Position numbers and translations under genes: made by a program
Part shown: positions 17,063-45,989 of the stretch, piece by piece
Layout of the letters: every line of letters starts with the position of its first letter
Numbering within the stretch: the stretch's first letter is position 1
The notes under the pieces: model-generated
Databases searched by the model: none
Seen by the model: the letters and a program-made list of their open reading frames with translations, nothing else
What the model was told of the DNA's origin: nothing
Origin: Patescibacteria group bacterium
GTDB taxonomy: Bacteria > Patescibacteriota > Doudnabacteria > UBA920
NCBI GenBank assembly: GCA_038065175.1
Contig: JBBTRN010000018.1
Coordinates: 1,445-47,978 of the forward strand
DNA length: 46,534 bases
Reading direction: 5' to 3'

Positions 17063-17081
17063 ACAAGAGTGATCAAGAATT

Positions 17082-17465
17082 ATGAATGACAAGAATAAAT
17101 ACAAAGACGGTAAAAATTTGCAAAAAAGGACTAAACAATTTGCTATTCGAATTATTAAACTTGCCCGATTTCTAGAAAAAGATCCTATCACACGGATGAT
17201 TGGCCGACAAATCTTTCGATCTGGAACATCCATTGCTGCAAACTACCGAGCTTCTTGCCGCTCCAGATCTGTTAAGGAATTTATTGCCAAATTGGGCATA
17301 GTAATTGAAGAAGCGGACGAAACTGAATTCTGGTTAGAATTACTGATTGAGTCCAGGTTGGTTGAACCAAATTTAATACAAGACCTTTTAAAAGAAGCTG
17401 ATGAAATAACAGCCATTATGGTAAGCTCAAAAAATTCAACAATAGCCAATCAGAAAAAAGAATAA
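17082..17465 (+). CDS. four-helix-bundle protein (23S rRNA IVS protein-like)
   Basis: QIFRSGTSIAANYRA...FIAKLGIVIEEADETEFWLELL. Confidence 0.9.
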   Translation: MNDKNKYKDGKNLQKRTKQFAIRIIKLARFLEKDPITRMIGRQIFRSGTSIAANYRASCRSRSVKEFIAKLGIVIEEADETEFWLELLIESRLVEPNLIQDLLKEADEITAIMVSSKNSTIANQKKE

Positions 17466-17507
17466 TTCTTATCATTCTTAATTATTCTCTAATTCTTATG
17501 TATTCCT

Positions 17508-18227: not shown

Positions 18228-18274
18228 TAAAAAACTGATAATTGATAATAAATAACTTATAACTAAAACAAACT

Positions 18275-18640
18275 ATGGCGTATAAGTTTAGAGACTGGCA
18301 AGTTTACAAAGACGCCAGAAAATTAAGACAAGAAATTAACCGACTTACTAAAACTTTTCCCAAAGATGAGCAATATATTCTTATTGACCAAATTAGAAGA
18401 GCCATTCTGTCGGTAATTTTACAAATTGCTGAAGGCTCTAACCGAAAAACTGAGAAAGACAAAAATCTCTTTATTAATCGGGCTTTGACATCTTTGGATG
18501 AGGTTATTGCTTGTTTTGATTGCGCTTTTGATGATAACTACATTTCTAAGGAAAAATTGGAAGAATTGGAGACTAAAATTGAAAATGTTTCTAGGCAGCT
18601 TAGAGGTTTTGCAAAGTATATTTCCAAAAGTTATAAGTAA
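18275..18640 (+). CDS. four-helix-bundle protein (23S rRNA IVS protein-like)
   Basis: FPKDEQYILIDQIRRAILSVILQIAEG...ALTSLDEV. Confidence 0.9.
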   Translation: MAYKFRDWQVYKDARKLRQEINRLTKTFPKDEQYILIDQIRRAILSVILQIAEGSNRKTEKDKNLFINRALTSLDEVIACFDCAFDDNYISKEKLEELETKIENVSRQLRGFAKYISKSYK

Positions 18641-18670
18641 TTAATTATAAATTATTAGTTAAAATTATTT

Positions 18671-30111: not shown

Positions 30112-30175
30112 GTTCTAGTGATTAGTGCTAAGTGACTAGTGACTAGAAAAATCTAATCACTAAACACTAATCACT
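30112..30175. repeat. empty inverted array of TAGTGAY 7-mers
   Basis: tagtgattagtgctaagtgactagtgactag / ctaatcactaaacactaatcact between the yidC stop and jag start. Confidence 0.75.
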
Positions 30176-30881
30176 GACCACTTGCCTGCGCTCGCTGGCG
30201 GTTAATAATATACTGCTGGCCTATGCCAAAAAGGGTGGTTACCACCCAATAAAGAGGCAAGCCCGCGGGAAAATTCCAGGCGATTACCACGCTTACAACC
30301 GGCAGCATATACGTCATTTGCATAGACATAATTTTCTGCGTTGAGTCTGTCGGGCCGCTACCGCCTTTCGGCGCCATTAATTTAGACTGCCAAAACTGGG
30401 TTAAGCCTGCCAATACGGCCAGGACATGGCTGGGTTTGGACAAATCTAATAAACCCAGGAACATTGGACTTAAATGCTCCGGGCGCTTAATAAAACTATA
30501 AAGCCCGGTTAGTTCCCCGGTTAAAGCCTGGGTAAAAACAAAATACAAAGAAATTAAAATTGGCAGCTGGATGAGTAAAGGCAGGCAGGAAGAAAAAGGA
30601 TTTACTTTATGCTCTTTGTACAAGTCCATCATTGCTTTTGCCTGCGCCTGCTGGTCATTTTTATATTTCTCCCTAATCTCGTTCATCTTCGGCTGTATGG
30701 CCGTCATGGCCGCCTGGCTCTTGAGGGATTTGTGGAAAGAGGGGGCGAGGGCCAAGCGGATAAGCATGGTTAAAAGGATTATAACCACGCCAATATCCGG
30801 GATAATGTTATAGAACAAAATTAAAACATTCAACAACACCGGCACTAAAATAAAATTTTTGGAAAAAGGATTTAGGATCAT
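30171..30881 (-). CDS. yidC: membrane protein insertase
   Basis: IQPKMNEIREKY, SCLPLLIQLPI and PAGLPLYWVV. Confidence 0.93.
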   Translation of the reverse strand: MILNPFSKNFILVPVLLNVLILFYNIIPDIGVVIILLTMLIRLALAPSFHKSLKSQAAMTAIQPKMNEIREKYKNDQQAQAKAMMDLYKEHKVNPFSSCLPLLIQLPILISLYFVFTQALTGELTGLYSFIKRPEHLSPMFLGLLDLSKPSHVLAVLAGLTQFWQSKLMAPKGGSGPTDSTQKIMSMQMTYMLPVVSVVIAWNFPAGLPLYWVVTTLFGIGQQYIINRQRAQASGQ

Positions 30882-31870: not shown

Positions 31871-31899
31871 CCCTGCTAATAATTTTTTATTTGGCCACA

Positions 31900-32012: not shown

Positions 32013-32096
32013 TGGTTGCTAATGGCGCTAATTTTCTGTTGAGGATGCCAGGGTATTATTTGTGTTATTGATGTTTAATTAATGCATCTGTGGCCT

Positions 32097-33455
32097 ATGA
32101 ATAACCAACAACTCTGGCAAGCCATACTTGGAAGCCTGGAAGTTTCATTGAGCAAAGCCAATTTTAATACTTGGTTTAAAAATACGAGCATTGTTGAAAG
32201 AGGTGCTAATTTTATAGTACTTAATGTGCCCAGTGCATTTAACCGGGACTGGATAGCAAACAAGTACCACCAGGAAATGCTTAAAAGCCTAAAAACGCTC
32301 ACCCCCGAAATCCGCGAAATAAAGTATCGGATAGGGGGCTCAAAAGACCCACAAACCCCACCATCCCAACCCTACACCAACCGTGAAATAAAAAGCTTGG
32401 AAAATTCCAGGTCTAAGACCTCCCCAAGCAACCACACCTCAACCCTAAACCCCAAGTATGTTTTTGAAACTTTCATTGTGGGTAAAAATAACGAGCTAGC
32501 TCATGCCGCGGCCTCCGCAGTGGTCAAAAGCCCTGGAGGACAATACAACCCCTTGTTTATTTACGGCGGGGTTGGTCTGGGAAAAACCCATCTTATGCAG
32601 GCGGTTGGACACAAAATTTTAAACTCCTTAGGCACAAACAAATTATTGTATGTTACCTGTGAGAAGTTCACCAACGACTACATTGAATCCCTTAGGGAAA
32701 AACGAATGGATGATTTTAAAAAAAACTACCGCGACTTGGGTGCGCTCCTGGTTGACGATATCCAATTTTTAGCCGGCAAAGAAAGTACCCAGGAAGAATT
32801 CTTCCACACCTTTAACGAGTTAAGGGATAAGGGAAGGCAGATAATTATCACCTCTGACCGCCCACCAAAGGAAATACCCGCAATTGAGCAAAGGCTTATT
32901 TCCAGGTTCGAAGGCGGAATGGTTGCCGATATCCAAGCCCCAGATTTAGAAACCAGAATGGCGATTCTAAAAAATAAAATGGAGAAGCGCCCCTCTCAAA
33001 TTTCCGAAGAGATACTTTTTTACATTGCGGAAAATATACAAAGTAATGTAAGGGAGCTTGAGGGTGCCCTAAACCGACTTGTTGTTTACCAACAAATGGA
33101 AAACAAAGGTTTGGTGCTCGAACAGGCAAAAAACATCTTAACCAGCCTTATTTCCTCAAAAAAACGGATGGTGTCGCCAAAAAAAATCGCCGATGTGGTT
33201 GCGGAATTTTACAATATCCAATTCGAGGATCTAATAAAACAATCGAGGAAAAAAGAGTTTGTAAAACCCAGGCAGATTGCAATGTATTTGATACGAAAAG
33301 AGTTGGAAAATTCATTTCCTTCAATTGGGGATTTTTTCGGGGGCCGGGACCACACTACTGTAATGCACGCGGTTGATAAAATCAATAGTATGGTTTCAAA
33401 CAAAATACAATTCAAACAAGAGGTTGATTTAATCCTTAATAAGTTGTTAATATAA
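32097..33455 (+). CDS. dnaA: chromosomal replication initiator
   Basis: YNPLFIYGGVGLGKTHL, LLVDDIQF, NVRELEGAL and GRDHTTV. Confidence 0.97.
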   Translation: MNNQQLWQAILGSLEVSLSKANFNTWFKNTSIVERGANFIVLNVPSAFNRDWIANKYHQEMLKSLKTLTPEIREIKYRIGGSKDPQTPPSQPYTNREIKSLENSRSKTSPSNHTSTLNPKYVFETFIVGKNNELAHAAASAVVKSPGGQYNPLFIYGGVGLGKTHLMQAVGHKILNSLGTNKLLYVTCEKFTNDYIESLREKRMDDFKKNYRDLGALLVDDIQFLAGKESTQEEFFHTFNELRDKGRQIIITSDRPPKEIPAIEQRLISRFEGGMVADIQAPDLETRMAILKNKMEKRPSQISEEILFYIAENIQSNVRELEGALNRLVVYQQMENKGLVLEQAKNILTSLISSKKRMVSPKKIADVVAEFYNIQFEDLIKQSRKKEFVKPRQIAMYLIRKELENSFPSIGDFFGGRDHTTVMHAVDKINSMVSNKIQFKQEVDLILNKLLI

Positions 33456-33638
33456 TAGGGATGGTTGTAAGACAAAAATCTGGTAACTCAAAAGGGGTTT
33501 TACCGCCAACAAAATATCCCCTGCGGTGGTGTGTATAAAACCCACCCAAAACCCCACCAACCACTGATTATTTTGTAGATATTGACATTCCCACACCCCT
33601 TATTATTACTTTGTTTTAAATACTTATATTATACTATT
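33456..33638. other. oriC candidate (dnaA-dnaN intergenic region)
   Basis: DnaA box TGTGTATAA 33530, ATTCCCACA 33587 followed by CCCC and trio-like TATTATTACT in an AT-rich tract; the + strand looks G-richer to the right. Confidence 0.65.
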
Positions 33639-34721
33639 ATGAAAATAATATGCACCCAAGAAAATTTACACTCCGGTCTGGGTATTGCTGTAAAAATAAT
33701 TTCAGCAAACAATACCCTCCCAATCCTTAATAATATTTTACTCAAAACCGAAAATGGACAATTAAAAATTTCTTCAACCAACCTTGAGGTGGCAATTAAT
33801 ACAAAGATTAGATGTAAAATTGAAGAACAGGGACAAATAACAGTTGGGGGGAAAACCCTTAACGAATTAATTAACACCCTGCCGAATGAAAACCTGGAAC
33901 TATACACTGATAAAAACAATTTGGTAATAAAAACAGAAAGCCAGGAATTTAAAATAAAAACACTACCCGTGGAAGAATTCCCCCTCATACCAGAAACCCA
34001 AAGCAATAACACAACCAGTTTTGAGCAGGAAAAATTAAAGCAGGCAATCAACCAAGTTGTATTTTCCGCGTCGCAAAACCAAACCCAACCCGAAATTTCA
34101 GGAATTTATCTCAGTTTAAAAGGTGGTGAAGCAAGATTTGCGGCAACAGACAGATATAGGCTTGCGGAAGCGATTATTCCGGCAGAGGGTTTGGCAGAGG
34201 TAATAATCCCGCAAAAAACAACATTGGAAGTTGCCAGAATTTTGTCTTTAAGACCGGAAAAAGTAGAGGTTGGGTTTTCGGAGAACCAAATATTTTTCAC
34301 AATAGGACAGACCGATGTTATTAGCAGGCTTGTGGATGGGCAATATCCGGATTATAAAAACATTATCCCGGATAATTTTAATTCCACAATGGTGGTGGAA
34401 AAAAATAAACTACAAAATGCTTTAAAAGCCAATGCGCTGTTTTCCCAAAATTCCAGCAGTGTGAGAATGGCTTTCGCGGGGGGCAAATTGACGATCTCTT
34501 CGGAGTCAGAGGGATTGGGGAGCGGGATTGTTGATATCCAGGCAAAAGTCGAAGGGGAAGAAGGGAGTTTGTTGTTAAATTTTAAGTACGTTTTGGATTT
34601 TTTGGCACAACTACAAGGGGGCTCTGTGGTTATTAAAGTTGTAAACGACACCTCGCCGGCAGTGTTTGTCCCGGAAGGGCGAAGCGATTATTTGTATTTA
34701 GTTATGCCGATTAAGATTTAA
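33639..34721 (+). CDS. dnaN: DNA polymerase III beta clamp
   Basis: LPILNNILL, STNLE, ATDRYRLA, GQYPDY and LVMPI. Confidence 0.95.
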   Translation: MKIICTQENLHSGLGIAVKIISANNTLPILNNILLKTENGQLKISSTNLEVAINTKIRCKIEEQGQITVGGKTLNELINTLPNENLELYTDKNNLVIKTESQEFKIKTLPVEEFPLIPETQSNNTTSFEQEKLKQAINQVVFSASQNQTQPEISGIYLSLKGGEARFAATDRYRLAEAIIPAEGLAEVIIPQKTTLEVARILSLRPEKVEVGFSENQIFFTIGQTDVISRLVDGQYPDYKNIIPDNFNSTMVVEKNKLQNALKANALFSQNSSSVRMAFAGGKLTISSESEGLGSGIVDIQAKVEGEEGSLLLNFKYVLDFLAQLQGGSVVIKVVNDTSPAVFVPEGRSDYLYLVMPIKI

Positions 34722-34804
34722 TGGTTAGTGAGGGCCGGTTTTAAGTCAAGATAAAGCTGGTAGTTTTCATGCCGCTGCAACCCGAGGGTTTTTCAGTTCT
34801 GCGT

Positions 34805-35902
34805 ATGCGTATAAAAAACATTAAAATTAAAAATTTTAGAAATTACCCGGATTTGGATTTGGAAATTACGGGTGATGTGGTGGTATTAACCGGGCCTAAT
34901 GCTGTGGGGAAAACTAATCTTTTGGAATCCGTTTATTTTGCTTCGCTTTTTAAATCTTTTCGCGATGATACGGAATTCATATTTTTGAAGGACTCGAATC
35001 GGTTGGAGCTGTCCGTTGATATTGAAAAAGAGGGGAGCTCCCATGCCCTGGAAATATTTTTAGAGAGAAGGGATAAGGTGTATGCCAATTTTCGCATAGA
35101 CGGGGTAAAAAAGAAAAGGAAGGAAGCGCAGGGCTATGTGAGTGTTGTGGTTTTTGATCCTACAGACGTGGAGATGTTCAGCCGCCCGCCGGAAGCGAGG
35201 CGGAAATATTTAAACATGGTGCTGTGCCAAAAAAGCCCTGCGTACCTGGAAATTTTGGGGGATTATAAAAAAGTCTTGTTCCAAAAGACCAAATTGCTTT
35301 TGGCAGTGAAACAGGGTTTGGGGTCGGGCGAGGACTTGGCCGCCTGGAATCAACAGCTTGTGGATTTGGGGAGCGAGATAGTTTTAGAGAGGCGAAAGTT
35401 TATTAATTTTCTGAATAATAATATTTCTGAAGTTTACACTACCATTTCCGGGTTTCACCGGCCGGTGGAAGTCTGGTACGACGGATTTGAGGGCGAGGAC
35501 AAAGAGGATTTAGGCGCACAGTTTTTTAGCAGGCTGGAAGCGCTAAAAAATAAAGAAGGGCTTTTGGCTTCCTGTTTAGTAGGCCCCCACAGGGACGATT
35601 TTTCCTTAAAAAGCGAAGGGCTTTTTTTGCCCCCATTTTCCTCCAGGGGGGAACTAAGAAGCCAGGTGCTGGCATTAAAAATTTTGGAGCTCGAGTATTT
35701 AAGCAAGGGGGAAGAAAAACCAATACTGCTTTTAGACGACGTGCTTTCGGAGTTGGATGACACAAGACGCGAATATTTACTTAAGTTTTTGCAGGGGAAA
35801 TTCCAGACATTTATTACCACCACCATGGCGTTGGATATGCCGGCCCAGCATATAAGTTTGTCGCCAGCCGAGGAAGTGGAGGAGGTCGGCCAAGCCCAAT
35901 AG
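34805..35902 (+). CDS. recF: DNA replication/repair protein RecF
   Basis: NFRNY, GPNAVGKTNLLE, GPHRDD, SRGE and LLLDDVLSELD. Confidence 0.95.
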   Translation: MRIKNIKIKNFRNYPDLDLEITGDVVVLTGPNAVGKTNLLESVYFASLFKSFRDDTEFIFLKDSNRLELSVDIEKEGSSHALEIFLERRDKVYANFRIDGVKKKRKEAQGYVSVVVFDPTDVEMFSRPPEARRKYLNMVLCQKSPAYLEILGDYKKVLFQKTKLLLAVKQGLGSGEDLAAWNQQLVDLGSEIVLERRKFINFLNNNISEVYTTISGFHRPVEVWYDGFEGEDKEDLGAQFFSRLEALKNKEGLLASCLVGPHRDDFSLKSEGLFLPPFSSRGELRSQVLALKILELEYLSKGEEKPILLLDDVLSELDDTRREYLLKFLQGKFQTFITTTMALDMPAQHISLSPAEEVEEVGQAQ

Positions 35903-35945
35903 AAAAAACAAGAACCAATTTTAAAAATCCTTCTTGGCTGTCATG

Positions 35946-35973
35946 CCTTCGGTAGATCTCCCGAAGGGAGACA
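35946..35973. repeat. REP-like palindrome
   Basis: CCTTCGG-tagatctc-CCGAAGG with overlapping TCTCCCGAAGGGAGA. Confidence 0.5.
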
Positions 35974-36109
35974 ATTGAAGGTTTTCGGCCATTTGGCCAA
36001 AAAAATTTATCCGCTTAACTTTCAGTTAAACATCAAAATTTATTTTGCCCAACCGGTTCAAAAATCTTCAATTTCGCCTAAAAATTATTTTTCAAACAGG
36101 TTCCCAAAT

Positions 36110-36472
36110 ATGAATAAAACCAACCCAAAATTAAAAATTTTCGTAAAAAGTAAGTCCGGCATAGGCGCGAAAAAAACCAAAGGCTTTGTCGGAATATCAA
36201 ACGCCATAGAAGGCCATCCCAAGTCTAAAATTTTAAAACAGGCGTTTTACAAGCATAGGGCAATAAACACATGGGAAAAGGCGGTTTCAGAATTTTTTGA
36301 GGGAGCCGAGGCCCAAAGCAAGGCGGTGGACTTTAAAGAAGGGGTGCTAATGGTCGCCTGTTTGTCGAAAGACCTTGCGTATAAAATAAAAGCCTTTGCC
36401 CAAAGGATAATTTATATTTTAAACCAGCTTATTGGCAAGGATTTAGTTTTTGCTATAAGAGTTGAATATTGA
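36110..36472 (+). CDS. DciA/DUF721-like protein
   Basis: W...V...SKAVDFKEGVLMVAC...A pattern and position after recF. Confidence 0.7.
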   Translation: MNKTNPKLKIFVKSKSGIGAKKTKGFVGISNAIEGHPKSKILKQAFYKHRAINTWEKAVSEFFEGAEAQSKAVDFKEGVLMVACLSKDLAYKIKAFAQRIIYILNQLIGKDLVFAIRVEY

Positions 36473-36597
36473 TGTCTTATTTTTGATTCTCAAGCCAAAC
36501 AGTATCAGTCCTGGGTGGGCGCATACATAAATTAGCAAAATTCACCAAAAAGTTCTATAATAAGAGGGCTTTAATTAACCATTAAAATCTTAAATTT

Positions 36598-36822
36598 ATG
36601 GTCGAAATAATTTCAATAAAAAAGGAAATGGACAACTTAGATGAGCAGGATAAGCAAAAGCGAGAAAATTATGAAAAATTTAAAAAAGAGGCCGAACCTA
36701 AAATTTAGGCAGAAATGGCCAAAATGAGGCAAGAAAATCCTGATATGAACGAAGAGGCTCTTCGGCTTGCCGCAATTAGTTACTTAGCGGATAAAAAAGG
36801 TACTTGGAGAGGTGAAAAATAG
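36598..36822 (+). pseudogene. hypothetical charged protein with in-frame TAG at 36706-36708
   Basis: MVEIISIKKE...EPKI*AEMAKMRQENP...GEK; coding-like on both sides of the stop. Confidence 0.4.
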
Positions 36823-36845
36823 AATTTATTAAATTGGCAAATGGT

Positions 36846-37307
36846 ATGTCAAAACACGATAACCCAACTCCCGAAATAAGTGGCGACGCAATAGCAGATA
36901 AATACGCAGAGAGCTTAATTAAATTTCTTGAGCAAGGCCGTGGACTAAGCCCTGCAACTAAAGAGCGGTTACTAAAGGCTTTAAGTGGGCAAAGCCATTC
37001 GGAAACAAGCCGAGCAATAAGTAGTCTTGTAATGGAAAGGTCAGCCGTTGTCCAACCACAAAGAACAATGCCCCCTCAAAGGGGGGAAACAGAAACAGGG
37101 TCAAGCGTGGAGCAAACAATTCTTAACAATTTGGATAAAGCTGACAGACAGTCAAATAGAAGCCCACAAAAATTTGCAGAATTTTTTCGTAACCTTCTGC
37201 CAAGCGGATATGAAGTAGGATTAATAAAGGTTCCTCGCAGCAGAGCTGGCGAGGTATTAACTGCAAGGGGAGAACTATCATTTCGGAGCAAAGCTCCGAG
37301 GTATTAA
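36846..37307 (+). CDS. hypothetical protein, possibly truncated by palindromic insertions
   Basis: ORF ends just after a hairpin; coding-like sequence resumes at about 37360-37599 in another frame. Confidence 0.5.
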   Translation: MSKHDNPTPEISGDAIADKYAESLIKFLEQGRGLSPATKERLLKALSGQSHSETSRAISSLVMERSAVVQPQRTMPPQRGETETGSSVEQTILNNLDKADRQSNRSPQKFAEFFRNLLPSGYEVGLIKVPRSRAGEVLTARGELSFRSKAPRY

Positions 37308-37726
37308 ACCTGTATTAGCTCCTCGGCTCGCAAGATAATCCTTAAGGATTATCTTGACTCGCTCTACGTCGCGAATAAAAGGACAAATAGCGGAATTTAC
37401 TGCCCCAAACGGCATAACAATTTTAGTTTGTCCTTTGGGAAATACACGGCTTGCCTCTTTACCAGATTATGTTGGTATGTTCAACATTGGAGGCAAAAAC
37501 CAAGGTGCAAATATCCCAGTTATGAGAGTTTTAAAGCCAGCAGTTTTAGGAAGTGGAAGAAAGTTAATGCAAAAGGGTTTATTATCTACCGATTACTAAA
37601 AACTTATCCAGCAATTTCGCCGAGTAACCGTAACTGCCGAAAACTTGCACCCAATCCATAGTTCTATAATCGTCCCTTAGACCGCTCCAAAGAAAAATAC
37701 CCAAGTTTTTAGACGGAGTTTTGTAA

Positions 37727-38191
37727 TTATTTCAAGGTTTTACTTTTGATACCCAGTGCGCGGTGGACGAGTTCGCTGGAACTTTGCGCTTTGCCGCCGC
37801 CGACATTGTAGACCATTTTAATACCAACCCGTTCACAGGTTTTTATATCTTTAAAAAGTGATGATTCGGGGTTTGCGGCATCGGCTTCGTTTCTGTCCCC
37901 GCCGTTGGCAAAAACATCCGGCCTTATCTCTTCCAATTCTTTGGCAACGGACATGTCTTCCGGGCTCTCCGGATGCCCGGTGAGCCTGGCTTCATCAACA
38001 TCCCGCAGGGCCTCAATGATGGCCTTGCGTTCGTTTTCATCCATAAACACAAAACCCTTTTTTGCCATAAGCCAATTGTCGTTATTTATTAGCACAATTA
38101 AATAATCGCCAAGTTTTTTGGCGGCTATAAATAACTGGACATGGCCTATGTGGAGCGGATCAAACCCGCCGGAGACAAGAACCTTTAGCAT
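37727..38191 (-). CDS. cytidylyltransferase-like (HIGH) nucleotidyltransferase
   Basis: SGGFDPLHIGH, KKG, ER, PDVFANGGDR and SSS. Confidence 0.88.
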   Translation of the reverse strand: MLKVLVSGGFDPLHIGHVQLFIAAKKLGDYLIVLINNDNWLMAKKGFVFMDENERKAIIEALRDVDEARLTGHPESPEDMSVAKELEEIRPDVFANGGDRNEADAANPESSLFKDIKTCERVGIKMVYNVGGGKAQSSSELVHRALGIKSKTLK

Positions 38192-38230
38192 AATTGATGA
38201 TTATTTATTAATAATTGATAACTGAAAATT

Positions 38231-38599
38231 CTAAGGTTTGTTGTGATTAGTGATATATTTATCCAGCCCACGAAGTTGTTTGCCGATGTTTTCGGTTTTT
38301 TCCATAAAATATATGTGCTGATCTTGGCTAATATAGCCATCGTCAAATGCAGAATCCAGACACGCAACAACTTCAAAAAGAGAAGTTAAGGAGCGGTTTA
38401 TAAAAACGCTTTTGTCTTTTTCTGTTTTTCTTTCAGACCCTTCGGCTATCTGCAGAAGTACAGAGAGCATAGCTCGCCTCGTTTGGTCGACTAACAGGTA
38501 TTTTTCTTCAACAGGGTAGGCTATTAGAATTTTGTTTACTTCCTTTTTCAGTGTACGTGCGTCTATATACACCTGCCAAGATTGAAACCTAAAAGCCAT
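38231..38599 (-). CDS. four-helix-bundle protein, close paralog of 18275-18640
   Basis: WQVY, YLLVDQTRRAMLSVLLQIAEGSERKTEKDK; flanked by a perfect 16-bp inverted repeat (38207-38222/38605-38620). Confidence 0.9.
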   Translation of the reverse strand: MAFRFQSWQVYIDARTLKKEVNKILIAYPVEEKYLLVDQTRRAMLSVLLQIAEGSERKTEKDKSVFINRSLTSLFEVVACLDSAFDDGYISQDQHIYFMEKTENIGKQLRGLDKYITNHNKP

Positions 38600-38639
38600 A
38601 GGCGGTTATCAATTATTAATTATCAATTATCAATCAGCT

Positions 38640-39185
38640 TTAATTGTGGTGGGCGTTCGTGCGCTGTTCGGGCGGGATTTTTTCGTAAAGGTCGAGGATT
38701 AGTTTGTTAATGGAACCAGGGTTTGGCACGTCTGAAAATTCAAAACGTTCTATGCTGGCCGCGGTTTGCACATACACATCGCCGTAGTTAAAGACAGTGC
38801 CTAAAACCCCGCTTACTTCGCTGGTTACATCTTCTATGTTTTCTATGTGGAGCTCGGAAACTTCGTGGTGGAAAAGCCCAACTTGGTCTATGTCTACAAT
38901 CCTGCGGTCAGTAATGATTTGCACGTTTAGGTAGTAAAACAGCCAAATTAAAAAAAGCGACAAGGTCAAGAATATGGTGTAAACCTGGAGAAATAGTTTG
39001 GTAACCGCGCCAATAGAGCCCTCAAACAGCCCGGGGAGCCAGACTCCCCCATAGCGCCTGAACAAGACTAGCGCCGCGGCAAACATAAACCAAATGAAAA
39101 GTTTTTTCAATAAAACCACCCAGTGCTGGCGCACCACAATATAAATTTTTTCGTCTTCCAGCTGGCTGGGGAAAAGTTTATGCAT
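38640..39185 (-). CDS. bacterial PH-domain membrane protein
   Basis: RQHW, two TMs, ITDRRIVDIDQVGLF and FNYGDVYVQTA. Confidence 0.8.
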   Translation of the reverse strand: MHKLFPSQLEDEKIYIVVRQHWVVLLKKLFIWFMFAAALVLFRRYGGVWLPGLFEGSIGAVTKLFLQVYTIFLTLSLFLIWLFYYLNVQIITDRRIVDIDQVGLFHHEVSELHIENIEDVTSEVSGVLGTVFNYGDVYVQTAASIERFEFSDVPNPGSINKLILDLYEKIPPEQRTNAHHN

Positions 39186-39277
39186 AGGCTAGTAATTGAT
39201 GATTGATAATTTATTATTGATAACTGCTTAGTTTGGTTTTAAGTAATCAATCATTAATCAACAATTATCAATTAATT
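39186..39277. repeat. empty inverted TGATAAT-type array homologous to the arms around 38231-38599
   Basis: TAATTGATGATT and ATTGATAACTG also occur at 38191 and 38214; right arm aatcaatcattaatcaacaattatcaatta. Confidence 0.75.
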
Positions 39278-39485
39278 AAACAATGTTTTGTAAAGTTGAA
39301 TGGGATTGGGCGAGGATTGTAAGAAAGAAAAAAGAAAACACCAAAGCTACCACAAGGCTAAGACCGCGTTTTTCTCCGTATTTAATAAGTACATAAATGC
39401 CAAAAGCAGCCAAAAAAACCATTACGGCGGCTAATACGTAGTAAATTCCGCCAATAACCATGTTGGCAAAAAGGGAAAAATTCAT
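39276..39485 (-). CDS. small two-TM membrane protein
   Basis: 69 aa with two hydrophobic helices, in operon. Confidence 0.7.
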   Translation of the reverse strand: MNFSLFANMVIGGIYYVLAAVMVFLAAFGIYVLIKYGEKRGLSLVVALVFSFFFLTILAQSHSTLQNIV

Positions 39486-39547
39486 AGTTTAATTAATTTC
39501 TAATGGATAATTGAATGCCCATAACCAAAAATTAGTTATCAGTTGTT

Positions 39548-40594
39548 TTAAAGAATGCTTTGTTGGCCGCTTGCGGAAACCGGGGGGATAATGTCCAGGT
39601 GCTTATAAGCGGCTTCCGTGGGCTGTCTGCCTTTAGGAGTCCTTAAGATCAGCCCCAGCCGCAGAAGGAAGGGTTCGTGGATGTCTGAAATGGTATCTTC
39701 TTCTTCGCCTGTGGCCGCGGCCAGGGTGTTAAGCCCCACAGGCCGGCCTTGGAATTTGTGGATTAAGGCTTCTAAAATTCTTCGGTCGTTTTTATCCAGA
39801 CCCAAATTGTCAACCTCCAACAGCTCCAAAGCTTCTTTGGCCGTGTCTAAAAGAATTGTATCATGGCCGTGGACCTGGGCAAAATCTCTCACGCGCCTTA
39901 AAAGCCGATTGGCAATCCGCGGGGTGAAGCGCGAACGGCGGGAGAGCTCCCCGGCCGCCGCTTTTTCCAAATCCGCGTTTAAAATTTTTCCGCTGCGTTC
40001 AATAATCCTTTCAATTTCTTCCGGTTCATAGTATTCCAGGCGGTAAGTCGCCCCAAAGCGGTCCCTTAAAGGCGCGGACAAAAGTCCGATCCGCGTGGTA
40101 GCGCCAATTAAAGTAAACTTAGGCAGTTCCATGCGGATGCTTCTTGCTCCCGGTCCTTTGCCCAGGACAATGTCCAAAAAGCCGTCCTCCATTGCCGGGT
40201 ACAAAATTTCCTCCACTGCTTTATTCAGCCTATGGATTTCGTCAACAAATAAAATGTCGCCCTCGGAGAGGTTGGTTAAGACAGAAGCCAAATCGCCGGC
40301 GCGCTCAATGGCCGGACCGGAAGTTATTTTAATGTTGCTGCCGATTTCCCGTGCGACAATATGCGCCAGCGTGGTTTTGCCCAGACCCGGGGGTCCATAA
40401 AATAAAATATGCTCCAAATGCTCCTTTCTCTGTTTTGCTGCCCCCAGGAGGATTTTGAGGTTCCGTTTTACCGACTCCTGGCCAATGTAGTCTTCAAAAT
40501 TGCCCGGCCGAAGGGTTTGTTCAATGACGATTTCGTCGTCATTAGCAGTGCTTGAGGCTAGGTCATCGGTTTTAGGTTTTTTTGATTCGATCAT
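39548..40594 (-). CDS. ruvB: Holliday junction branch migration helicase
   Basis: [30 protein letters not shown] and RTPKGR. Confidence 0.96.
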
Positions 40595-40599
40595 TTTTT

Positions 40600-40672
40600 A
40601 TTAGGTAGCTAGTAGGGGGTAGCTGGTAGCCAAATTGCCTGGCTAAATGCTACTCGCTACTTGCTAAATGCT
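40600..40672. repeat. empty inverted GGTAGCT/TGCTACT-type array
   Basis: ggtagctagtag...gtagctggtagc / gctaaatgctactcgctacttgctaaatgct between the vanW stop and ruvB start. Confidence 0.7.
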
Positions 40673-41969
40673 AGTTGGTTGGCATCTGCACGCCTGTTGA
40701 CGGTGCGGCGGTGGGGTAAGTTTCCTGTTTATGGAACAGAGCAGGCGACTGGTAAACTGACTTAAAAGTCGAAGTTGCGGTTTTGCCGCCGTTTTCCACT
40801 ATGCGGGTCCATTCCGCCTTCATACTGCCGTCAGTTTTTCTCTCATATGAAAAAGGTTTTTGCAAAGTTACCTTTCGTTCGTCGCGCGTGCCGTAAAATT
40901 CAAAAATTAAAGTATAGGAGTCTTTAATATAGGGCCAGACTAGAATGTGGCCGGGGGTGTCATTAATAAATTTTAAGTCAATGACTCCGGGGTAAATAGT
41001 GGCGTCCGTGCCTTGGGGCGAATAGTACTGCACGGCATAGGAGTGGTTTTTTCTTTGGGTAATGGGGATGCCCGCCTTCATGGCTGCCCTAAAGGTGGTG
41101 GAAGAGACTTGGCATAACCCGCCGCCAAATTCCGGTACTGTGCCGGTTTTTTTGATGACCAGCTCGGGCAAAAAGCCGTTTTCTGCCTCCACTGGTCCCA
41201 AAATTTTGTTAAAACTAAATTCTTCCCCGGGAGCAATAATTGCGCCCTTAAATTTGGTGAGGCCGACTTTAATATTATGGATGCGGTTTTTGGGACTGCC
41301 TTTGAAATTGGATTCACCGGTGGCTATTAATTCATTAATACCCATAGGGTTGGTTTCAGCCAAAGATTTTAACGGCTTGTCAATTTCAATCGCCAGTTCC
41401 GCCCGGGGTTCAGATCTCTCCAAGGCTCCCAGGATTATTAGGGTTGAAGAAAAAATATCCAGACTAAGCCCGTCTTTGGGAGGCGTAAAATTTACAGCCT
41501 GATTCACAGCCGTAGTATTTTTAAGCTCAAGGCTCGGTTCGGCTTTGGCAATATTAATCTTCCCGGATAAAGTTTTTAAGTAGTTGTAAATTTTTTCAGG
41601 ACGGTTTTTGTATATTACAATCCTTTCCTGGAATTTGTTAAAGTTAGCTGGCGCGCCGTTAATTCCATTTATTTCCATAATAGCAGTGTGGGTTGATTCG
41701 GAAGATGCAGAGAAAATTTGGGACCCGACGGTTTTTTCCGTCCCCAGACCCAAATATTTTTTTAACGCTGTTTGCGAACCATCCTGCTTTTCCAACAAAT
41801 TTTTTTTTGCAATGACCCCAATGCCTTTAAATGATTCAAGGGTATCTTCTCGGATCTCGGTTTCTTTCCCGGCATATAAAAGCTCAAAAGCCCGGACAGT
41901 TTTTAGCCGGTAGTTGAAAGCGCTTAAAATAACCAACACGAGAAAAAAAATTTTAATTCTGGCTTCCAT
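40671..41969 (-). CDS. VanW-family protein
   Basis: RIHNI, PGEEFSFN, GGGLCQVSST, RKNHS and DATIY; N-terminal TM. Confidence 0.88.
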   Translation of the reverse strand: MEARIKIFFLVLVILSAFNYRLKTVRAFELLYAGKETEIREDTLESFKGIGVIAKKNLLEKQDGSQTALKKYLGLGTEKTVGSQIFSASSESTHTAIMEINGINGAPANFNKFQERIVIYKNRPEKIYNYLKTLSGKINIAKAEPSLELKNTTAVNQAVNFTPPKDGLSLDIFSSTLIILGALERSEPRAELAIEIDKPLKSLAETNPMGINELIATGESNFKGSPKNRIHNIKVGLTKFKGAIIAPGEEFSFNKILGPVEAENGFLPELVIKKTGTVPEFGGGLCQVSSTTFRAAMKAGIPITQRKNHSYAVQYYSPQGTDATIYPGVIDLKFINDTPGHILVWPYIKDSYTLIFEFYGTRDERKVTLQKPFSYERKTDGSMKAEWTRIVENGGKTATSTFKSVYQSPALFHKQETYPTAAPSTGVQMPTN

Positions 41970-42366
41970 GGGTAAAATGAATCATTATGGCGTTAGGCGG
42001 CAAATATTTTTTTATTTTATCCGCCCATTCAATAAGCACAACCGCGTCTTTTTTCCCCCACAGATCGGTTATGCCCAAGGCCCTTACTTCACTAATGTTT
42101 TTAGTCCGGTATAAGTCTAAATGAAAAAGCATAATTTTCTTCTTATTCTTTGGCAAGAGACCCCTAAAGATGTTCATGAGCACAAAAGTCGGGCTGGTAA
42201 TCCTGTTCTTTACCTTTAAGCGTTTTGCCAGCGCTCGGGCGAAAGCTGTTTTTCCGCTTCCTAATTCGCCTATAAGAGCCAGAACTTCGCCGCCCCGGAG
42301 TTTATGGGCAATATTCTTAGCAGCATCGGGTATTTGTGAGAGGTTGAGGGTAGTGTGTTTTTGCAT
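41953..42366 (-). CDS. tsaE: tRNA t6A biosynthesis ATPase
   Basis: GELGSGKT, ITSPTF, HLDLYR and LIEWA. Confidence 0.93.
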   Translation of the reverse strand: MQKHTTLNLSQIPDAAKNIAHKLRGGEVLALIGELGSGKTAFARALAKRLKVKNRITSPTFVLMNIFRGLLPKNKKKIMLFHLDLYRTKNISEVRALGITDLWGKKDAVVLIEWADKIKKYLPPNAIMIHFTHGSQN

Positions 42367-42369
42367 TGT

Positions 42370-42468
42370 CTTTCAGATGTATCAGATTAATCGGATAAAT
42401 CAGAATAATTAGAAATCGTGGATATATGATCCGATTTATCTGATTTCTGATTATTCCGATATTCTGAC
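42370..42468. repeat. empty inverted ATCAGAT/ATCGGAT-type array
   Basis: tcagatgtatcagattaatcggataaatcaga / atccgatttatctgatttctgattattccgatattctga upstream of tsaE. Confidence 0.7.
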
Positions 42469-42484
42469 CTTATTTTACCCTGAA

Positions 42485-42513
42485 TTGACCCTGGAGGCAA
42501 AATCATCTATAAT
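42485..42513 (+). promoter_or_regulatory. sigma70-type promoter
   Basis: TTGACC-17 nt-TATAAT. Confidence 0.65.
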
Positions 42514-42559
42514 ACAAAATCGTTTAATCTCGCGGGTAAAATTTTTTTTAAAAAGTCTT

Positions 42560-43726
42560 ATGCCAGACAGCGATTCCACCAAACAATTTTTTAACCAGCT
42601 TAACAATGCCAAACGGATCTTAATTGCGCTCCCGGCAGGGTTAAGCGCGGACGCAGCCAGCGCAGGCAGCGCTTTGGCAATGTTTTTAAAGCGCCTTAAT
42701 AAGGAAGTGGAGGTTCTTGCTTCTGAGAATTACGAAGACAGCCTTCCATTTTTGCCAAAAACTGGACTCTTAAAGCTGGTTTTAAATTCGTCCCAAAGCC
42801 TGGCCGTGGTTGTTGATACCACAAAAAAAGCCTTGGAGGAAATAAGCTACGCGCAGGAAGAAGGGCGGGCGAAAATTTTTCTAAAGGGCAAAACCGAAAT
42901 TTTTACCCCCGAAGAAGTGTCTTTTGAAACTGTAAGGAATACCCCTTACGACCTGGCGATTATTTTAGGCGCGCAGGATTTAAATGATTTAGGCACGGTT
43001 TTTGCGCAAAACCCCGATTTGTTTTATGAGACTCCAAAAATAAATATAGACAACAATCCAGGCAATAAGCTTTTTGGCGCAATAAACTTAATTGACATAA
43101 ACGCGGCATCGCTTTCCGAGATTATTACGACGATGCTCCAGGAATACGAGACCGACCTTTTTAATGAAGATATTGCCACCTGCCTTTTAGCCGGCATAAT
43201 GGCAAAAACCAACAGCTTCCAGCATGCGCAGGTTAGCCCTAAGAGTTTTATTCAGGCCGGGCTACTTGTGGAGAAAGGCGCGCGCCAGCAGGAAATTGTC
43301 CGCGCGCTTTTTAAAACCCGGTCCTTGCCGCTTTTGAAGTTATGGGGCAGAAGCCTGGCCAGGCTTAAGGATTTTGGCGATTGGACCTTGTCGCAGTTGA
43401 ATTTTTCTGACTTTGAGAAAGCAGAGGCCGACGAGACTTACCTGCCGCAGGTATTAAAGGATTTGCTCGAAAATTTGTCCGGCAAACTTGCGGTGGGGAT
43501 TGTGAGCCAGACAGACCCTTCGGGCGGCTTAAAGTTGGTTATAGCTTTCAAGAGAGGTGTTGATGTCCCCGGGCTATTCGGTGAATTTGGGGCAGGCCGG
43601 ATCTTGCCTTTAGCCGTTCCCGGCGCTTACGATGCATGGCAATTTAACATCGATAGTTTTTCTTTGGAAGAAGTTGAGGCCAAATTGGTTTCGTTAATGC
43701 CCAAACTTTTGCCCAAGCTTTCTTAA
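42560..43726 (+). CDS. DHH/NrnA-like phosphoesterase homolog (catalytic motifs degenerate)
   Basis: INIDNNPGN (for IDHH), FGAINLID, IATCLLAGI, TNSFQ and LKLWGR. Confidence 0.75.
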   Translation: MPDSDSTKQFFNQLNNAKRILIALPAGLSADAASAGSALAMFLKRLNKEVEVLASENYEDSLPFLPKTGLLKLVLNSSQSLAVVVDTTKKALEEISYAQEEGRAKIFLKGKTEIFTPEEVSFETVRNTPYDLAIILGAQDLNDLGTVFAQNPDLFYETPKINIDNNPGNKLFGAINLIDINAASLSEIITTMLQEYETDLFNEDIATCLLAGIMAKTNSFQHAQVSPKSFIQAGLLVEKGARQQEIVRALFKTRSLPLLKLWGRSLARLKDFGDWTLSQLNFSDFEKAEADETYLPQVLKDLLENLSGKLAVGIVSQTDPSGGLKLVIAFKRGVDVPGLFGEFGAGRILPLAVPGAYDAWQFNIDSFSLEEVEAKLVSLMPKLLPKLS

Positions 43727-43798
43727 CCTCTTTAATTAATGATATAATGCCTTTAATAGGGCGCAGCCCCTTTAGAAATCAAAATCAAAATTTTATTT

Positions 43799-45454
43799 AT
43801 GCCCACGCATCATTTTTTGCCCGGCACCGAAGAAGACCTCAAACGCACGCTGTTTGATGTTAACCGAAAAATGCAGGAAGAGGAGGTTAAGACGAAAGCC
43901 TCGTCTTTGGGGTTGCCTTATGTGGATTTATTTAATTTTCCCATTGATTTTAACGTGTTTGGTTTGTTAACGGAAGAAGAAGCCCGGGCAGCCGAAGCCG
44001 TTGTTTTTTACAAAGAACAAAACGATTTGCGCATTGCCACCCTAAATCCATTAAACGCCTTGTTAAAAAATAAATTAAAGGAATTTTCCGAAAAAAATAA
44101 AGTCGGATTATATTTGCTTTCATCCCAGAATTTTGCGAGAATTTTGAGCCTGTACGACAAAGTCCCAAAATTTAAGGCCAGGGTGCAGGACGAGGCCATA
44201 AAAATTGATAAGCAAAAAGATTTTTTGGCAGAATTGAAGGGCCTGAAAAATTTGTCTTTCCAGCAGCAAAAAAGCATGTCTGAATTAATGGAAATTATTT
44301 TTGGGACAGCGGTTGAGCTTAGGGTTTCGGACATTCATTTTGAGCCGGAAGAGCATTTTGTGAAATTACGCTTCAGGATCGACGGGGTACTGCACGACAT
44401 GCTTCATATTAACCTGAATTTGCAAAAAAGCCTCACGGTTCGTTTGAAAATTCTTGCGAAATTAAAATTTAACATTTCTAAAGTTTCCCAGGACGGGAGG
44501 ATGACTTTTCTTTATTTAGGCAAGCCTATAGATGTCCGCGTTTCTGTCCTGCCCAGCGCTTACGGGGAGGAGATTGTTATGAGGTTGCTTGGAGTAGACA
44601 ACATAGGCTTAAAAGTGTCGGAGCTGGGGTTGGGCGAAAAGGCGGAAGCACTGCTACGGAAAGCCTTGAATAGGCCGAATGGGATGATTATTACCACAGG
44701 CCCCACCGGTTCCGGTAAAACCACAACATTATACGCCTGTTTAAACGAACTGAATGACCCCGGTGTTAAAATTATTACTTTAGAAGATCCTGTTGAGTAT
44801 AAATTAGAAGGAATTGTGCAAACCCCAATAGATCATAACCATGATTTTGATTTTGCAAAGGGCCTGCGCGCGGTGTTAAGGCAAGACCCGGATATTATTA
44901 TGGTAGGGGAAATAAGGGACCAGGAGACCGCGGAAACCTCCATGCAGGCGGCGCTTACCGGGCATTTGGTTTTAAGCACCCTTCATACCAACGACTCTTC
45001 CGGGGCAATCCCCAGGCTAATTAACATGGGCGTTAAGCCGTTTGTCGCGGCGCCGGCCTTGTCTTTAATAATGGCGCAGAGGCTGGTTAGGCGGCTATGT
45101 CCGGCCTGTAAAAAAACAGCCCAGCTTAGCCCCCAGGTTTTAGAAAAGTGCGTTTATGTTTTAAAACAAATTCCCGAAAGCGCCGGAATAAATTTGCCGA
45201 AAGTTTATCAGTTTTTCCACAGTACCGGGTGCGCGGAGTGCGGAAATTTAGGCTATAAGGGGCGGTTGGGGATTTATGAGCTTATGGAGAACACTGAAGC
45301 TATTCAAAAGTTAATTTTTGAACAAGGCTCCATGAGCCAGTTTAAGAAAACCGCGGTTAAGCAAGGCATGGTAACTTTGGCTCAAGACGGCTTGCTAAAA
45401 GCGCTAGCAGGGCTTACAGATGTAGAGGAGGTGTTCAGGGTGGCAATGGAATAA
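43799..45454 (+). CDS. GspE/PilB family assembly ATPase
   Basis: SDIHFEP, RFRIDGVL, TGPTGSGKTTTLY, LRQDPD, STLHTN and a tetracysteine motif. Confidence 0.93.
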   Translation: MPTHHFLPGTEEDLKRTLFDVNRKMQEEEVKTKASSLGLPYVDLFNFPIDFNVFGLLTEEEARAAEAVVFYKEQNDLRIATLNPLNALLKNKLKEFSEKNKVGLYLLSSQNFARILSLYDKVPKFKARVQDEAIKIDKQKDFLAELKGLKNLSFQQQKSMSELMEIIFGTAVELRVSDIHFEPEEHFVKLRFRIDGVLHDMLHINLNLQKSLTVRLKILAKLKFNISKVSQDGRMTFLYLGKPIDVRVSVLPSAYGEEIVMRLLGVDNIGLKVSELGLGEKAEALLRKALNRPNGMIITTGPTGSGKTTTLYACLNELNDPGVKIITLEDPVEYKLEGIVQTPIDHNHDFDFAKGLRAVLRQDPDIIMVGEIRDQETAETSMQAALTGHLVLSTLHTNDSSGAIPRLINMGVKPFVAAPALSLIMAQRLVRRLCPACKKTAQLSPQVLEKCVYVLKQIPESAGINLPKVYQFFHSTGCAECGNLGYKGRLGIYELMENTEAIQKLIFEQGSMSQFKKTAVKQGMVTLAQDGLLKALAGLTDVEEVFRVAME

Positions 45455-45541
45455 CTCCATCTACGGATTACGGATAAGATACCAATATACCGATGAAGTA
45501 ATCCGTATACCCGTAATAAATTGGTAATTGGTAGATAATAT

Positions 45542-45919
45542 ATGACTGAGCTTTTGCATAAAGAATTAAGCGGGCAAATTATTGGCGCCCTATTTGAAGT
45601 GCATAATAATTTAGGTAACGGGCTTTTAGAAAAATATTACCAAAGAGGTCTGGCGGCTGAATTTCAGAAACGTGGCGTTAGTTTTCAGGAACAAGTTTCG
45701 GTTTCGATGTCTTATAAAGGTAAATCAATAGGTCGGCGGGTATTAGATTTTCTGGTTGATGGGAAGGTGGTTGTAGAAATAAAAAAAGACAATTATTTTT
45801 CCAGGCAGCATATTGAGCAGGCAACCAGTTATCTAAAAGCGTTAAATTTAGAACTTGCTATTTTGGCAAACTTTACAGGCGGGGGAGTAAAGTTTAAGCG
45901 CATATTAAATTTGTATTAG
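45542..45919 (+). CDS. GxxExxY protein (PD-(D/E)xK-like)
   Basis: LGNGLLEKYY, DFLVDGKVVVEIK, QATSYL and ANF; flanked by 32-bp inverted arms. Confidence 0.9.
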   Translation: MTELLHKELSGQIIGALFEVHNNLGNGLLEKYYQRGLAAEFQKRGVSFQEQVSVSMSYKGKSIGRRVLDFLVDGKVVVEIKKDNYFSRQHIEQATSYLKALNLELAILANFTGGGVKFKRILNLY

Positions 45920-45989
45920 TCATCCATTCGTATATTGGTAAAGAATCGGTAATCTGTAGATAACCCGCGGGAATAAGCGGTATTTTGTA

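Follow-up and report, generated by a model that had tools for sequence, protein, structure and literature searches.

The stretch of DNA analysed here (the window, 46,534 nt) comprises positions 1445-47978 of contig C18 in the assembly of a Doudnabacteria genome, G000 (1.03 Mb in 60 contigs, 42.7% G+C, 97.9% complete, 23S rRNA gene not in the assembly). It contains a small gene that lies between two genes of an operon and is enclosed by inverted arms of degenerate heptamers, and we observed that this is one instance of a recurrent cassette: a promoterless small open reading frame (ORF), encoding either a four-helix-bundle protein ('4HB'; PF05635 23S_rRNA_IVP/TIGR02436) or a GxxExxY/PDDEXK_3 protein, that is co-oriented with its operon and placed between inverted arms of ~30 nt. 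Our data show that the cassettes are insertions which are gained, lost and replaced between close relatives, that filled copies share their arms with multi-copy, cargo-less copies resembling MITEs (miniature transposable elements with inverted repeats), and that the cargo proteins are under purifying selection. We interpret the cassettes, with a probability of about 0.6, as selfish mobile elements of the same kind as the intervening sequences (IVSs) of rRNA, residing in operon spacers, whose arms pair in the transcript and loop out the cargo. IVS-type cassettes outside rRNA appear to be widespread and undescribed: a full-text literature search returned no paper in which 4HB or GxxExxY genes outside rRNA are associated with heptamer arms, the one related hit being a study of rRNA insertions in the candidate phyla radiation (PMC11270868), with most subscription journals lying outside the search, and a prior description cannot be excluded. 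A first-pass annotation of the window, made from its letters alone, had proposed mobile cassettes around 4HB genes; the genome-wide spread, the second cargo family (GxxExxY nucleases) and the MITE-like empty copies go beyond it.

The minus strand, which is the sense strand of the focal cassette, carries in this order ruvB, a gene for a 69-aa membrane protein (mem69), a bPH-like gene, the 122-aa cargo ORF at 38231-38599 and a cytidylyltransferase-like gene (CTP). The cargo ORF matches PF05635 (E 4e-23, 82 bits, cut-off 33.8) as well as TIGR02436 'four helix bundle protein' (E 1.3e-19). Its flanks had been described as inverted heptamer arrays that reach from the upstream stop to the downstream start and contain a perfect 16-bp match, and this description holds in full: the two 30-nt arms (38193-38222 and 38605-38634) show 87% complementarity, include the perfect inverted match 38207-38222/38605-38620 (read from the sequence), and fill both spacers between the bPH-like stop codon (38640-38642) and the cytidylyltransferase-like start (38191). 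The Smith-Waterman (SW) score of this flank pair is 40-41, compared to a mean of 14.6 and a 99th percentile of 25 for non-adjacent spacer pairs of the same genome. In the predicted fold of the whole 460-nt sense RNA the arms are paired both in the minimum free energy (MFE) and in the centroid structure (z -4.54, none of 100 shuffles as good). Terminator and promoter scans gave results at chance level, with no hit of either kind at the arms and no T run after them, and an Rfam scan of the window returned one tRNA as its single match, the focal cassette being located between protein genes and not in 23S rRNA. A resemblance of the cargo to Avd of diversity-generating retroelements did not hold up as an identity (bAvd 24.9 bits against a cut-off of 40, DivGenRetAVD 26.4 against 80).

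The same arrangement was found throughout G000, which has 10 PF05635 loci, one of them broken, and 11 loci of PF13366 (PDDEXK_3, equivalent to TIGR04256 GxxExxY; 12 matches, as one broken gene is matched in each of its two halves). Among the GxxExxY loci, two or three show a break or a truncation, and in one the ORF is fused in frame to the gene that follows: at positions 35659-35988 of contig C22 and downstream thereof it continues across the 3' heptamer arm (translated as SGNSDSNSGNSG) and on into a RuvX/YqgF-like gene, which results in a fusion ORF of 289 aa, and the end of the RuvX/YqgF-like gene again consists of translated heptamers. At nearly every 4HB and GxxExxY locus the ATG is preceded by 7-mers (in some cases 8-mers) in tandem and the stop codon is followed by their reverse complement, with a repeat unit that differs from locus to locus (CAGTGAT, GTAGCAA, TGATAAT, AAAGTAA, ATTGACAAA, TACGAAC, ACAGATA, CACGGAT, ACTAAAT). 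A genome-wide inverted-repeat search of gene flanks placed eight of nine 4HB genes above the 95th percentile of other crude gene calls (953 scanned in all). Among adjacent spacer pairs, 29 of 503 scored above the 99th percentile of non-adjacent pairs, and the genes spanned by them are mostly 4HB and GxxExxY genes; the others are DUF559, GIY-YIG and Y1 transposase genes and regulators with operator-like palindromes. Tandem arrays of at least three copies have predominantly a period of 7 (274 arrays, compared to 59 of period 6 and 30 of period 8), and after merging most of them are intergenic (178 of 293), although ~82% of the genome is coding according to crude gene calls. We counted 110 distinct canonical 7-mers among 263 arrays; single-linkage clustering of the units merged 257 of the 263 arrays and was uninformative. 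Around a DUF559 gene (C22:30571-30927) and a GIY-YIG gene (C45:17132-17425) the inverted repeats are GC-rich and not AT-rich heptamers, and these two small nuclease families may represent further cargo types of the same kind of cassette.

For a quantitative description we used 68 cassettes (35 4HB, 33 GxxExxY) from 25 related genomes, after dropping 4 of 72 for a run of N or a cargo outside 90-200 aa. The two arms of a cassette reach a median SW score of 28.5, compared to 13 for non-cognate arms, and exceed the non-cognate 95th percentile in 51 and the 99th percentile in 39 of the 68 cassettes. Base identity at lag 7 is 0.40 and 0.41 in the arms and 0.24 in the cargo coding sequence. Alignment of the two arms in 51 cassettes gave stems with a median length of 31 positions, which together comprise 1315 Watson-Crick pairs and 255 mismatches. 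In 52 of the 68 cases ORFs of the same strand lie on both sides of the cargo, about 40 nt away, and over 43 cassettes the median distance of the outermost arm bases is 0 nt to the upstream stop and 2 nt to the start that follows; both gaps together amount to no more than 15 nt in 35 of the 43. The cargo shows dN/dS values of 0.07-0.24 where measurable and pN/pS of about 0.2-0.3 where synonymous sites are saturated. We also considered the arms as three-frame stop signals: 37% of the 68 5' arms contain such stops compared to 21% after shuffling (maximum 32% in 200 shuffles), and 3' arms stay at the shuffled level; because this enrichment is modest, the idea was dropped as the main explanation. 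Across the 25 genomes, 4HB genes number between 0 and 14 and GxxExxY genes between 0 and 10. Their summed copy number correlates with the density of 7-mer arrays in a syntenic region of 14-20 kb (Spearman 0.68, n=21, uncorrected for phylogeny), and all six genomes with neither gene family lack arrays in that region.

The proposal that arms and gene form one insertable unit, and that filled, empty and absent alleles should therefore exist at orthologous loci, is borne out by the relatives, in which we found all three states: tight junctions, empty hairpins and filled cassettes. The gene order ruvB-mem69-bPH-CTP is kept in 29 loci of relatives, and none of the 29 has a 4HB gene at the bPH/CTP junction, where spacers are mostly 0-20 nt long; neighbouring spacers contain sporadic hairpins of other 7-mer types. 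The junction between up253 and yebC is filled with a 4HB gene in G000 and two relatives (G013 and G017, truncated in the latter); two further genomes have an empty hairpin there, three have single short arrays, and in 11 the junction measures 1-9 nt. Among 30 loci with the yebC/ruvC junction only that of G000 is filled with a 4HB gene, while about nine have empty hairpins, three other ORFs and 15 a spacer of 0-12 nt. A profile search of genome contigs with an alignment of two proteins yielded four loci, in metagenome bins named Candidatus Doudnabacteria: three of them (L061-L063) have the yebC/ruvC cassette, and in the fourth (L064) the bPH/CTP junction is occupied, as in G000, by the focal cassette, in a copy that is 77% identical, frameshifted and provided with TGATAAT-type arms. 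We further mapped 55 cassettes of relatives onto G000, 22 of which gave no single junction (flank not found in 19, flanks not adjacent in 3). The mapped junctions are filled with the same family in seven cases, filled with the other family in one and tight in five; in 20 there is a gap of at least 110 nt with neither cargo, which is an empty hairpin in a few cases and other sequence in most. The clearest case is a GxxExxY gene of G010 between CGCTGAT/ATCAGCG arms, for which G000 has the homologous arms with nothing between them, adjoining the same conserved gene end. A junction that in G003 is occupied by a GxxExxY cassette with CACAGAT arms is occupied in G000, a genome of the same genus, by a 4HB cassette, the arms of which are different. 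Conversely, similar arms with similar cargo occur at different junctions, namely in the two TGATAAT-type cassettes of the window and in a cassette of G017 (L042) compared to one on contig C39 of G000. Good arms around a frameshifted or stop-bearing cargo were seen in L042 (1082-1445), in L064 (2501-2864) and on contigs C11 (5313-5659) and C30 (8376-8682) of G000, which fits a cycle of invasion, decay and loss.

Empty copies are frequent as well. Of 555 spacers of 40-400 nt in length, 166 contain a hairpin that scores above all of 200 shuffles, and 37 hairpins are clearly 7-periodic with arms of at least 18 nt. These 37 are located at 35 co-directional, 2 divergent and no convergent junctions, compared to 420 co-directional, 66 divergent and 69 convergent junctions among all spacers, and therefore they are not operon-end terminators; we rejected intrinsic terminators as their identity on this ground (0 of 37 at convergent junctions) and in view of the focal arms, which have no terminator-like site. 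Several empty copies at different loci have inner non-repeat sequence in common, and thus constitute multi-copy families resembling MITEs. Elsewhere in the genome, 12 of the 17 filled cassettes of G000 have one or more empty counterparts with arms of their type.

Within the window, the features of which are listed in Table 1, the first-pass annotation had pointed to a cargo-less pair of the same arms one gene beyond the focal cassette, to a paralog with the same arm type and to a divergent homolog with another arm type, and each was recovered. The empty element fills the spacer between mem69 and the bPH-like gene, its arms are 85-87% identical to those of the focal cassette and its hairpin fold has a z value of -3.29 (2 of 200 shuffles as good). 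Its loop is identical to the last 11 nt of the cargo ORF at 8 of 11 positions, which is too weak to show that it is a deletion derivative. The 62-nt spacer between ruvB and mem69 (39486-39547) contains pieces like CTGATAACT and AGTTATCAG. These form a hairpin that is weaker than the empty element and possibly decayed, with arms of its type.

Table 1. Heptamer-armed cassettes and hairpins of the window (window coordinates)
Feature	Position	Strand	Description
5' arm, focal filled cassette	38599..38636	-	degenerate TTGATAA 7-mers between the bPH-like stop (38640-38642) and the cargo ATG (38599)
Cargo, 122-aa 4HB protein	38231..38599	-	PF05635, TIGR02436
3' arm, focal filled cassette	38191..38228	-	ends 1 nt short of the cytidylyltransferase-like ATG (38191)
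Empty element	39193..39274	-	arms 39193-39225/39242-39274, 33 nt, 82% complementary, 16-nt loop
Second filled cassette	18233..18660	+	between yebC and ruvC; arms 18233-18264/18629-18660, 32 nt, 88%, CTGATAA type; 4HB ORF 18275-18640, 58% identical to the focal cargo
Third filled cassette	17066..17488	+	upstream of yebC; divergent 4HB ORF 17082-17465; arms 17075-17096/17465-17486, 22 nt, 86% complementary, AAGAAT type
GxxExxY cassette	45459..45961	+	GxxExxY/PDDEXK_3 ORF 45542-45919; arms 45459-45495/45925-45961, 37 nt, 78% complementary
Another empty hairpin	30117..30182	.	7-periodic AGTGATT-type arms, 31 nt, 77% complementary, 4-nt loop

The suggestion that each protein subfamily has its own arm sequence was sustained in part: arm type follows the cargo only among close relatives. 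For cassette pairs at different loci, arm 6-mers overlap above background only when the cargo similarity exceeds ~120 bits, where the mean Jaccard index is 0.07 versus 0.02 for 4HB and 0.06 versus 0.02-0.03 for GxxExxY, and arms are shared only between cassettes with cargo more than ~50% identical. An overall correlation of arm k-mers with cargo similarity was not found for 4HB (Mantel test, 330/999) and is weak for GxxExxY (10/999). Even where the proteins of orthologous cassettes are 85% identical, no more of the unit is kept than a core of 4 nt (AGTG). Within groups of the same arm type, cognate arm pairs score 34.8 compared to 25.9 for non-cognate pairs (Mann-Whitney p 7e-5); the two arms of a cassette thus fit each other better than the arms of its relatives, and therefore they co-evolve. 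Some arm 5-mers are restricted to one cargo family (ACGAA, CGGAT and CAGAT to GxxExxY, GTAAG and AAGTA to 4HB; nominal p 0.004-0.05), and none of them survives Bonferroni correction for 307 tests (best p 0.0044, threshold 1.6e-4).

The kinship with rRNA IVSs that the first-pass annotation had assumed is direct, as seen from a family-level relative, G007. Its 23S rRNA gene contains a 114-aa 4HB ORF between 41-nt arms which are 80% complementary, consist of GTTAGAG/GTTGGGG-type 7-mers, and of which the 3' arm begins directly behind the stop codon. The same gene, which spans 4960 nt compared to the 2925 positions of the model, has a further insertion, with an ORF of 175 aa (L162:3038-3565). No rRNA was detected by Rfam beside the 4HB loci of relatives in the 20 that were scanned (of ~100). 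According to excerpts of PMC4990558, the Coxiella IVS has GACAGAT heptamers in three or four tandem copies in its 5' arm, the number differing from strain to strain, and RNase III cleaves at the first of these repeats; insertions in rRNA genes of the candidate phyla radiation (CPR) with 23S_rRNA_IVP and GIY-YIG ORFs are mentioned in excerpts of PMC11270868. The rRNA IVSs of Coxiella, Leptospira and CPR bacteria and our cassettes thus have in common the cargo family PF05635, inverted repeats closing a stem of ~28-41 bp, tandem heptamers in the 5' arm directly before the ATG (for Coxiella GACAGAT, in the excerpted text of PMC4990558) and a sporadic distribution. The cassettes of the window differ in that they are located between protein-coding genes, and the system differs in its second cargo family, GxxExxY, and in its cargo-less multi-copy forms.

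The arrangement is also found on plasmids. A tblastn search returned 33 plasmid records with 4HB relatives, mostly cyanobacterial, from which ten 4HB loci were chosen before their flanks were seen; nine of these are annotated, and inverted heptamer arms are present in six of the nine. These are loci of Nostoc edaphicum (TAGGGAG arms, SW 63, between nrdB and nrdA), Anabaena sp. 90 (between cas6 and cas4), Picosynechococcus (between cas10 and cmr3), Geminocystis, Stanieria and Riemerella. The unannotated tenth locus, of Gemmatirosa, has arrays with a weak inverted match. Clear heptamer arms were found at two of seven plasmid GxxExxY loci (Bacteroides finegoldii, SW 45; Bernardetia, SW 36). Three of the nine 4HB loci (L146, L150, L152) are inside CRISPR-Cas operons, between cas6 and cas4 in two genera and between cas10 and cmr3 in one; in L146 (290-870, a Pseudanabaena plasmid) the 4HB gene between cas6 and cas4 has ~15 AAAGCTA units upstream and ~10 AAAAGCC units downstream, in direct and not in inverted orientation.

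Heptamer repeats as such have been described repeatedly. Cyanobacterial short tandem heptamer repeats (STRR) were reportedly described by Mazel et al. in 1990. For Xanthomonas, excerpts of PMC4692102 report GGGAATC heptamers with 70-75 convergent pairs able to form stem-loops, without genes, and excerpts of PMC4679880 report TAACTGA repeats in Beggiatoaceae and heptamer repeats in Cyanobacteria and Bacteroidetes as well. The likeness to our arms consists in tandem 7-mers located mostly between co-directional genes and often ending beside a start codon, and 4HB genes on plasmids of Nostoc, Geminocystis, Anabaena, Stanieria and Picosynechococcus lie between such arrays. In the excerpted texts the published repeats comprise one or a few units per genome, are linked to no gene family and have been assigned G-quadruplex or translational roles, whereas here 110 distinct units are paired as inverted arms around two gene families.

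Under the reading that we favour, the arms would pair into a long stem in the polycistronic transcript and loop out the cargo, as the fold predictions suggest. The stem would bring the upstream stop next to the downstream start, by which the operon could stay functional, and, by analogy to rRNA IVSs, it is a predicted substrate of the host RNase III, the gene for which is encoded in G000; cleavage would release the cargo mRNA. Pairing in the mRNA is plausible in our view. The points that speak for a role in RNA are the co-orientation of the cargo, the avoidance of convergent and divergent spacers, the juxtaposition of stop and start at the base of the stem, the predicted folds with paired arms, the encoded RNase III and the precedent of rRNA. 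As to the DNA, the cargo nucleases, together with arms common to copies with and without cargo, hint at hairpins as the targets of copying: our best guess is that, after a structure-specific cut, cargo would be copied between hairpins whose arms match, the arms serving as homology arms. No reverse transcriptase was found in G000 as judged by RVT_1 (97.9% completeness), and movement through RNA is therefore unlikely.

Several observations weigh against the interpretation as mobile, RNA-silenced cassettes. We found no transposase linked to the elements and no excision product. No target-site duplication is visible at the compared junctions, the flanks of which are too diverged to decide. Contigs from the DNA runs X5, X6, X8 and X9 over positions 26600-46534 of the window contain no joint that skips the cassette or the empty hairpin; where they cover these, they are identical to the window, and contigs cannot reveal rare alleles. 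The arms of 17 of the 68 cassettes are no better than non-cognate controls, some of these being cases of mis-called ORF ends, and the correlation of array density with copy number ignores shared ancestry. On plasmids the remaining three of the nine 4HB loci have direct arrays on both sides, a one-sided array and none, respectively, and of the other GxxExxY loci that of Treponema has an 11-bp inverted repeat while four of the seven have none or other arrangements. Finally, the arm mismatches are G:U-compatible in 45 cases on the sense and in 45 on the antisense strand. Equal numbers on both strands are what a constraint at the level of DNA predicts, and do not favour selection on one RNA strand.

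This absence of a strand bias is the first point for the most serious rival, according to which the arms act only on DNA, either as terminal inverted repeats or iterons that a protein, perhaps the cargo itself, recognizes, or as a hairpin or cruciform that is cut by a structure-specific nuclease, namely the GxxExxY PD-(D/E)XK protein; the cargo would be copied into matching hairpins, and pairing in RNA would be incidental. It would also account for the arms common to filled and empty copies, and three of the four small cargo families between inverted repeats are nucleases (PDDEXK_3, DUF559, GIY-YIG). CACGGAT/CACAGAG-like units beside GxxExxY genes in CPR, Bacteroides, Bernardetia and Treponema, and the family-restricted 5-mers at their nominal p values, would agree with recognition of a sequence. 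However, no k-mer difference survives the correction for 307 tests, 110 distinct 7-mers occur in 263 arrays, and the arms differ between orthologues with 85% identical cargo, which argues against a strict reading of sequence. Elements acting on DNA alone should moreover tolerate any orientation as well as convergent or divergent spacers, yet the cargo is co-oriented and 35 of 37 empty hairpins are at co-directional junctions, and the stems of rRNA IVSs are known RNase III substrates (excerpts of PMC4990558). We regard an exclusive role in DNA as unlikely, though as a contender to be reckoned with.

The second rival is improbable. It holds that the hairpins are regulatory elements of the host, STRR-like sites of RNA processing or stability that arose in place by slippage of 7-mers, beside which small genes merely survive, with nothing mobile. 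The pervasive arrays of period 7 agree with it, as do the gene-less inverted heptamer pairs of Xanthomonas in the excerpted text of PMC4692102, and AAACATN-related hairpins at the yebC/ruvC junction in four genera could reflect conservation. In contrast, slippage in place does not explain similar arms with similar cargo at different junctions, different cassettes at one junction in two genomes of one genus, inner non-repeat sequence shared across loci by empty copies, or the lack of arrays in the syntenic region in all six genomes devoid of both gene families. The third rival, chance complementarity of AT-rich low-complexity spacers, which starts from the fact that the AT-rich, repetitive focal arms match their own reverse complement more easily than random sequence would, is refuted for practical purposes by the SW score of 40-41 against a same-genome 99th percentile of 25, by shuffle z values of -4.5 and -3.3, by GC-containing units at many loci (CAGTGAT, GTAGCAA, CGCGGAT) and by cognate arms that beat non-cognate arms of the same type.

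Among known mobile elements, the selfish cassettes that we propose can be compared to MITEs and foldback elements. In Drosophila the long inverted arms of FB foldback elements are composed of short tandem repeats, and an internal gene may be present or absent. The cassettes resemble such elements in their inverted tandem-repeat arms, the arms shared by filled and empty copies, the multi-copy empties and the rapid turnover, and both terminal inverted repeats and dispersed copies with common sequence are found here; they differ in that the arms are only ~30 nt long and insertion is confined to stop/start junctions inside operons. In integrons a cassette has attC on one side of the ORF and stands in arrays beside the integrase gene. 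Here too small promoterless ORFs are co-oriented with an outside promoter, and an imperfect inverted repeat is conserved in structure and not in sequence, but the repeat halves flank the ORF and the cassettes are scattered singly over many contigs. The hairpin-forming short intergenic repeats also recall repetitive extragenic palindromes (REP) and their associated transposases (RAYT). G000 has two Y1_Tnp genes, and at C30:4060-4801 a 213-aa IS200-like Y1 transposase (PF01797) has the same perfect palindrome of 18-20 bp (GAGATGGTCATCTTCTCGGC type) on both sides; similar palindromes occur on C58, C30, C9 and C22. The transposase and these palindromes look like a REP/RAYT system that is separate from the heptamer hairpins, and we rejected membership of the cassettes in it, the palindromes being perfect and not 7-periodic (p7 = 0.00), unlike the cassette arms.

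A wider view, which we consider conceivable and offer tentatively, is that the 4HB and GxxExxY proteins belong, together with foldback arms of heptamers, to a single mobile system that is ancient and spans phyla, of which the 23S IVSs would be the best-known sites and which would be the source of the heptamer repeats of the STRR, Bacteroidota, Xanthomonas and CPR; the cargo would home into matching hairpin loops, and its insertion would be kept phenotypically silent in RNA by loop-out or by RNase III. If this is true, the cassettes would be protein-coding 'intervening sequences' of bacterial messenger RNA. Intervening sequences of bacterial rRNA have been known since 1990, and to our knowledge no explanation has yet been given for their origin, for the way they spread or for what their ORF does. 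Likewise, the 4HB and GxxExxY proteins are, as far as we know, among the largest small 'hypothetical' families in Cyanobacteria, Bacteroidota and CPR with no known function, and we know of no explanation for the over-representation of heptanucleotide repeats in prokaryotes. PDDEXK_3 is given as of unknown function in PMC3424549. The present data tie the IVSs, the two protein families and the heptamer repeats into one testable architecture, in which a cargo ORF with self-complementary heptamer arms is inserted between a stop and a start and is found filled, empty or absent at the same site, and they provide a simple rule by which intergenic hairpins, present by the hundreds in reduced genomes, can be annotated. 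Should the arms indeed restore operon expression, this would be a new way for a mobile element to hide in an essential transcript.

A further type of inverted repeat was observed at genes for Trp-repressor-like and ArsR-like regulators of G000 (C26:1939-2563, C22:46624-47151, C17:15132-15407 and C21:6295-6564). Each has an identical perfect palindrome upstream and directly downstream of the gene, and these palindromes are operator-like and unlike the heptamer arms.

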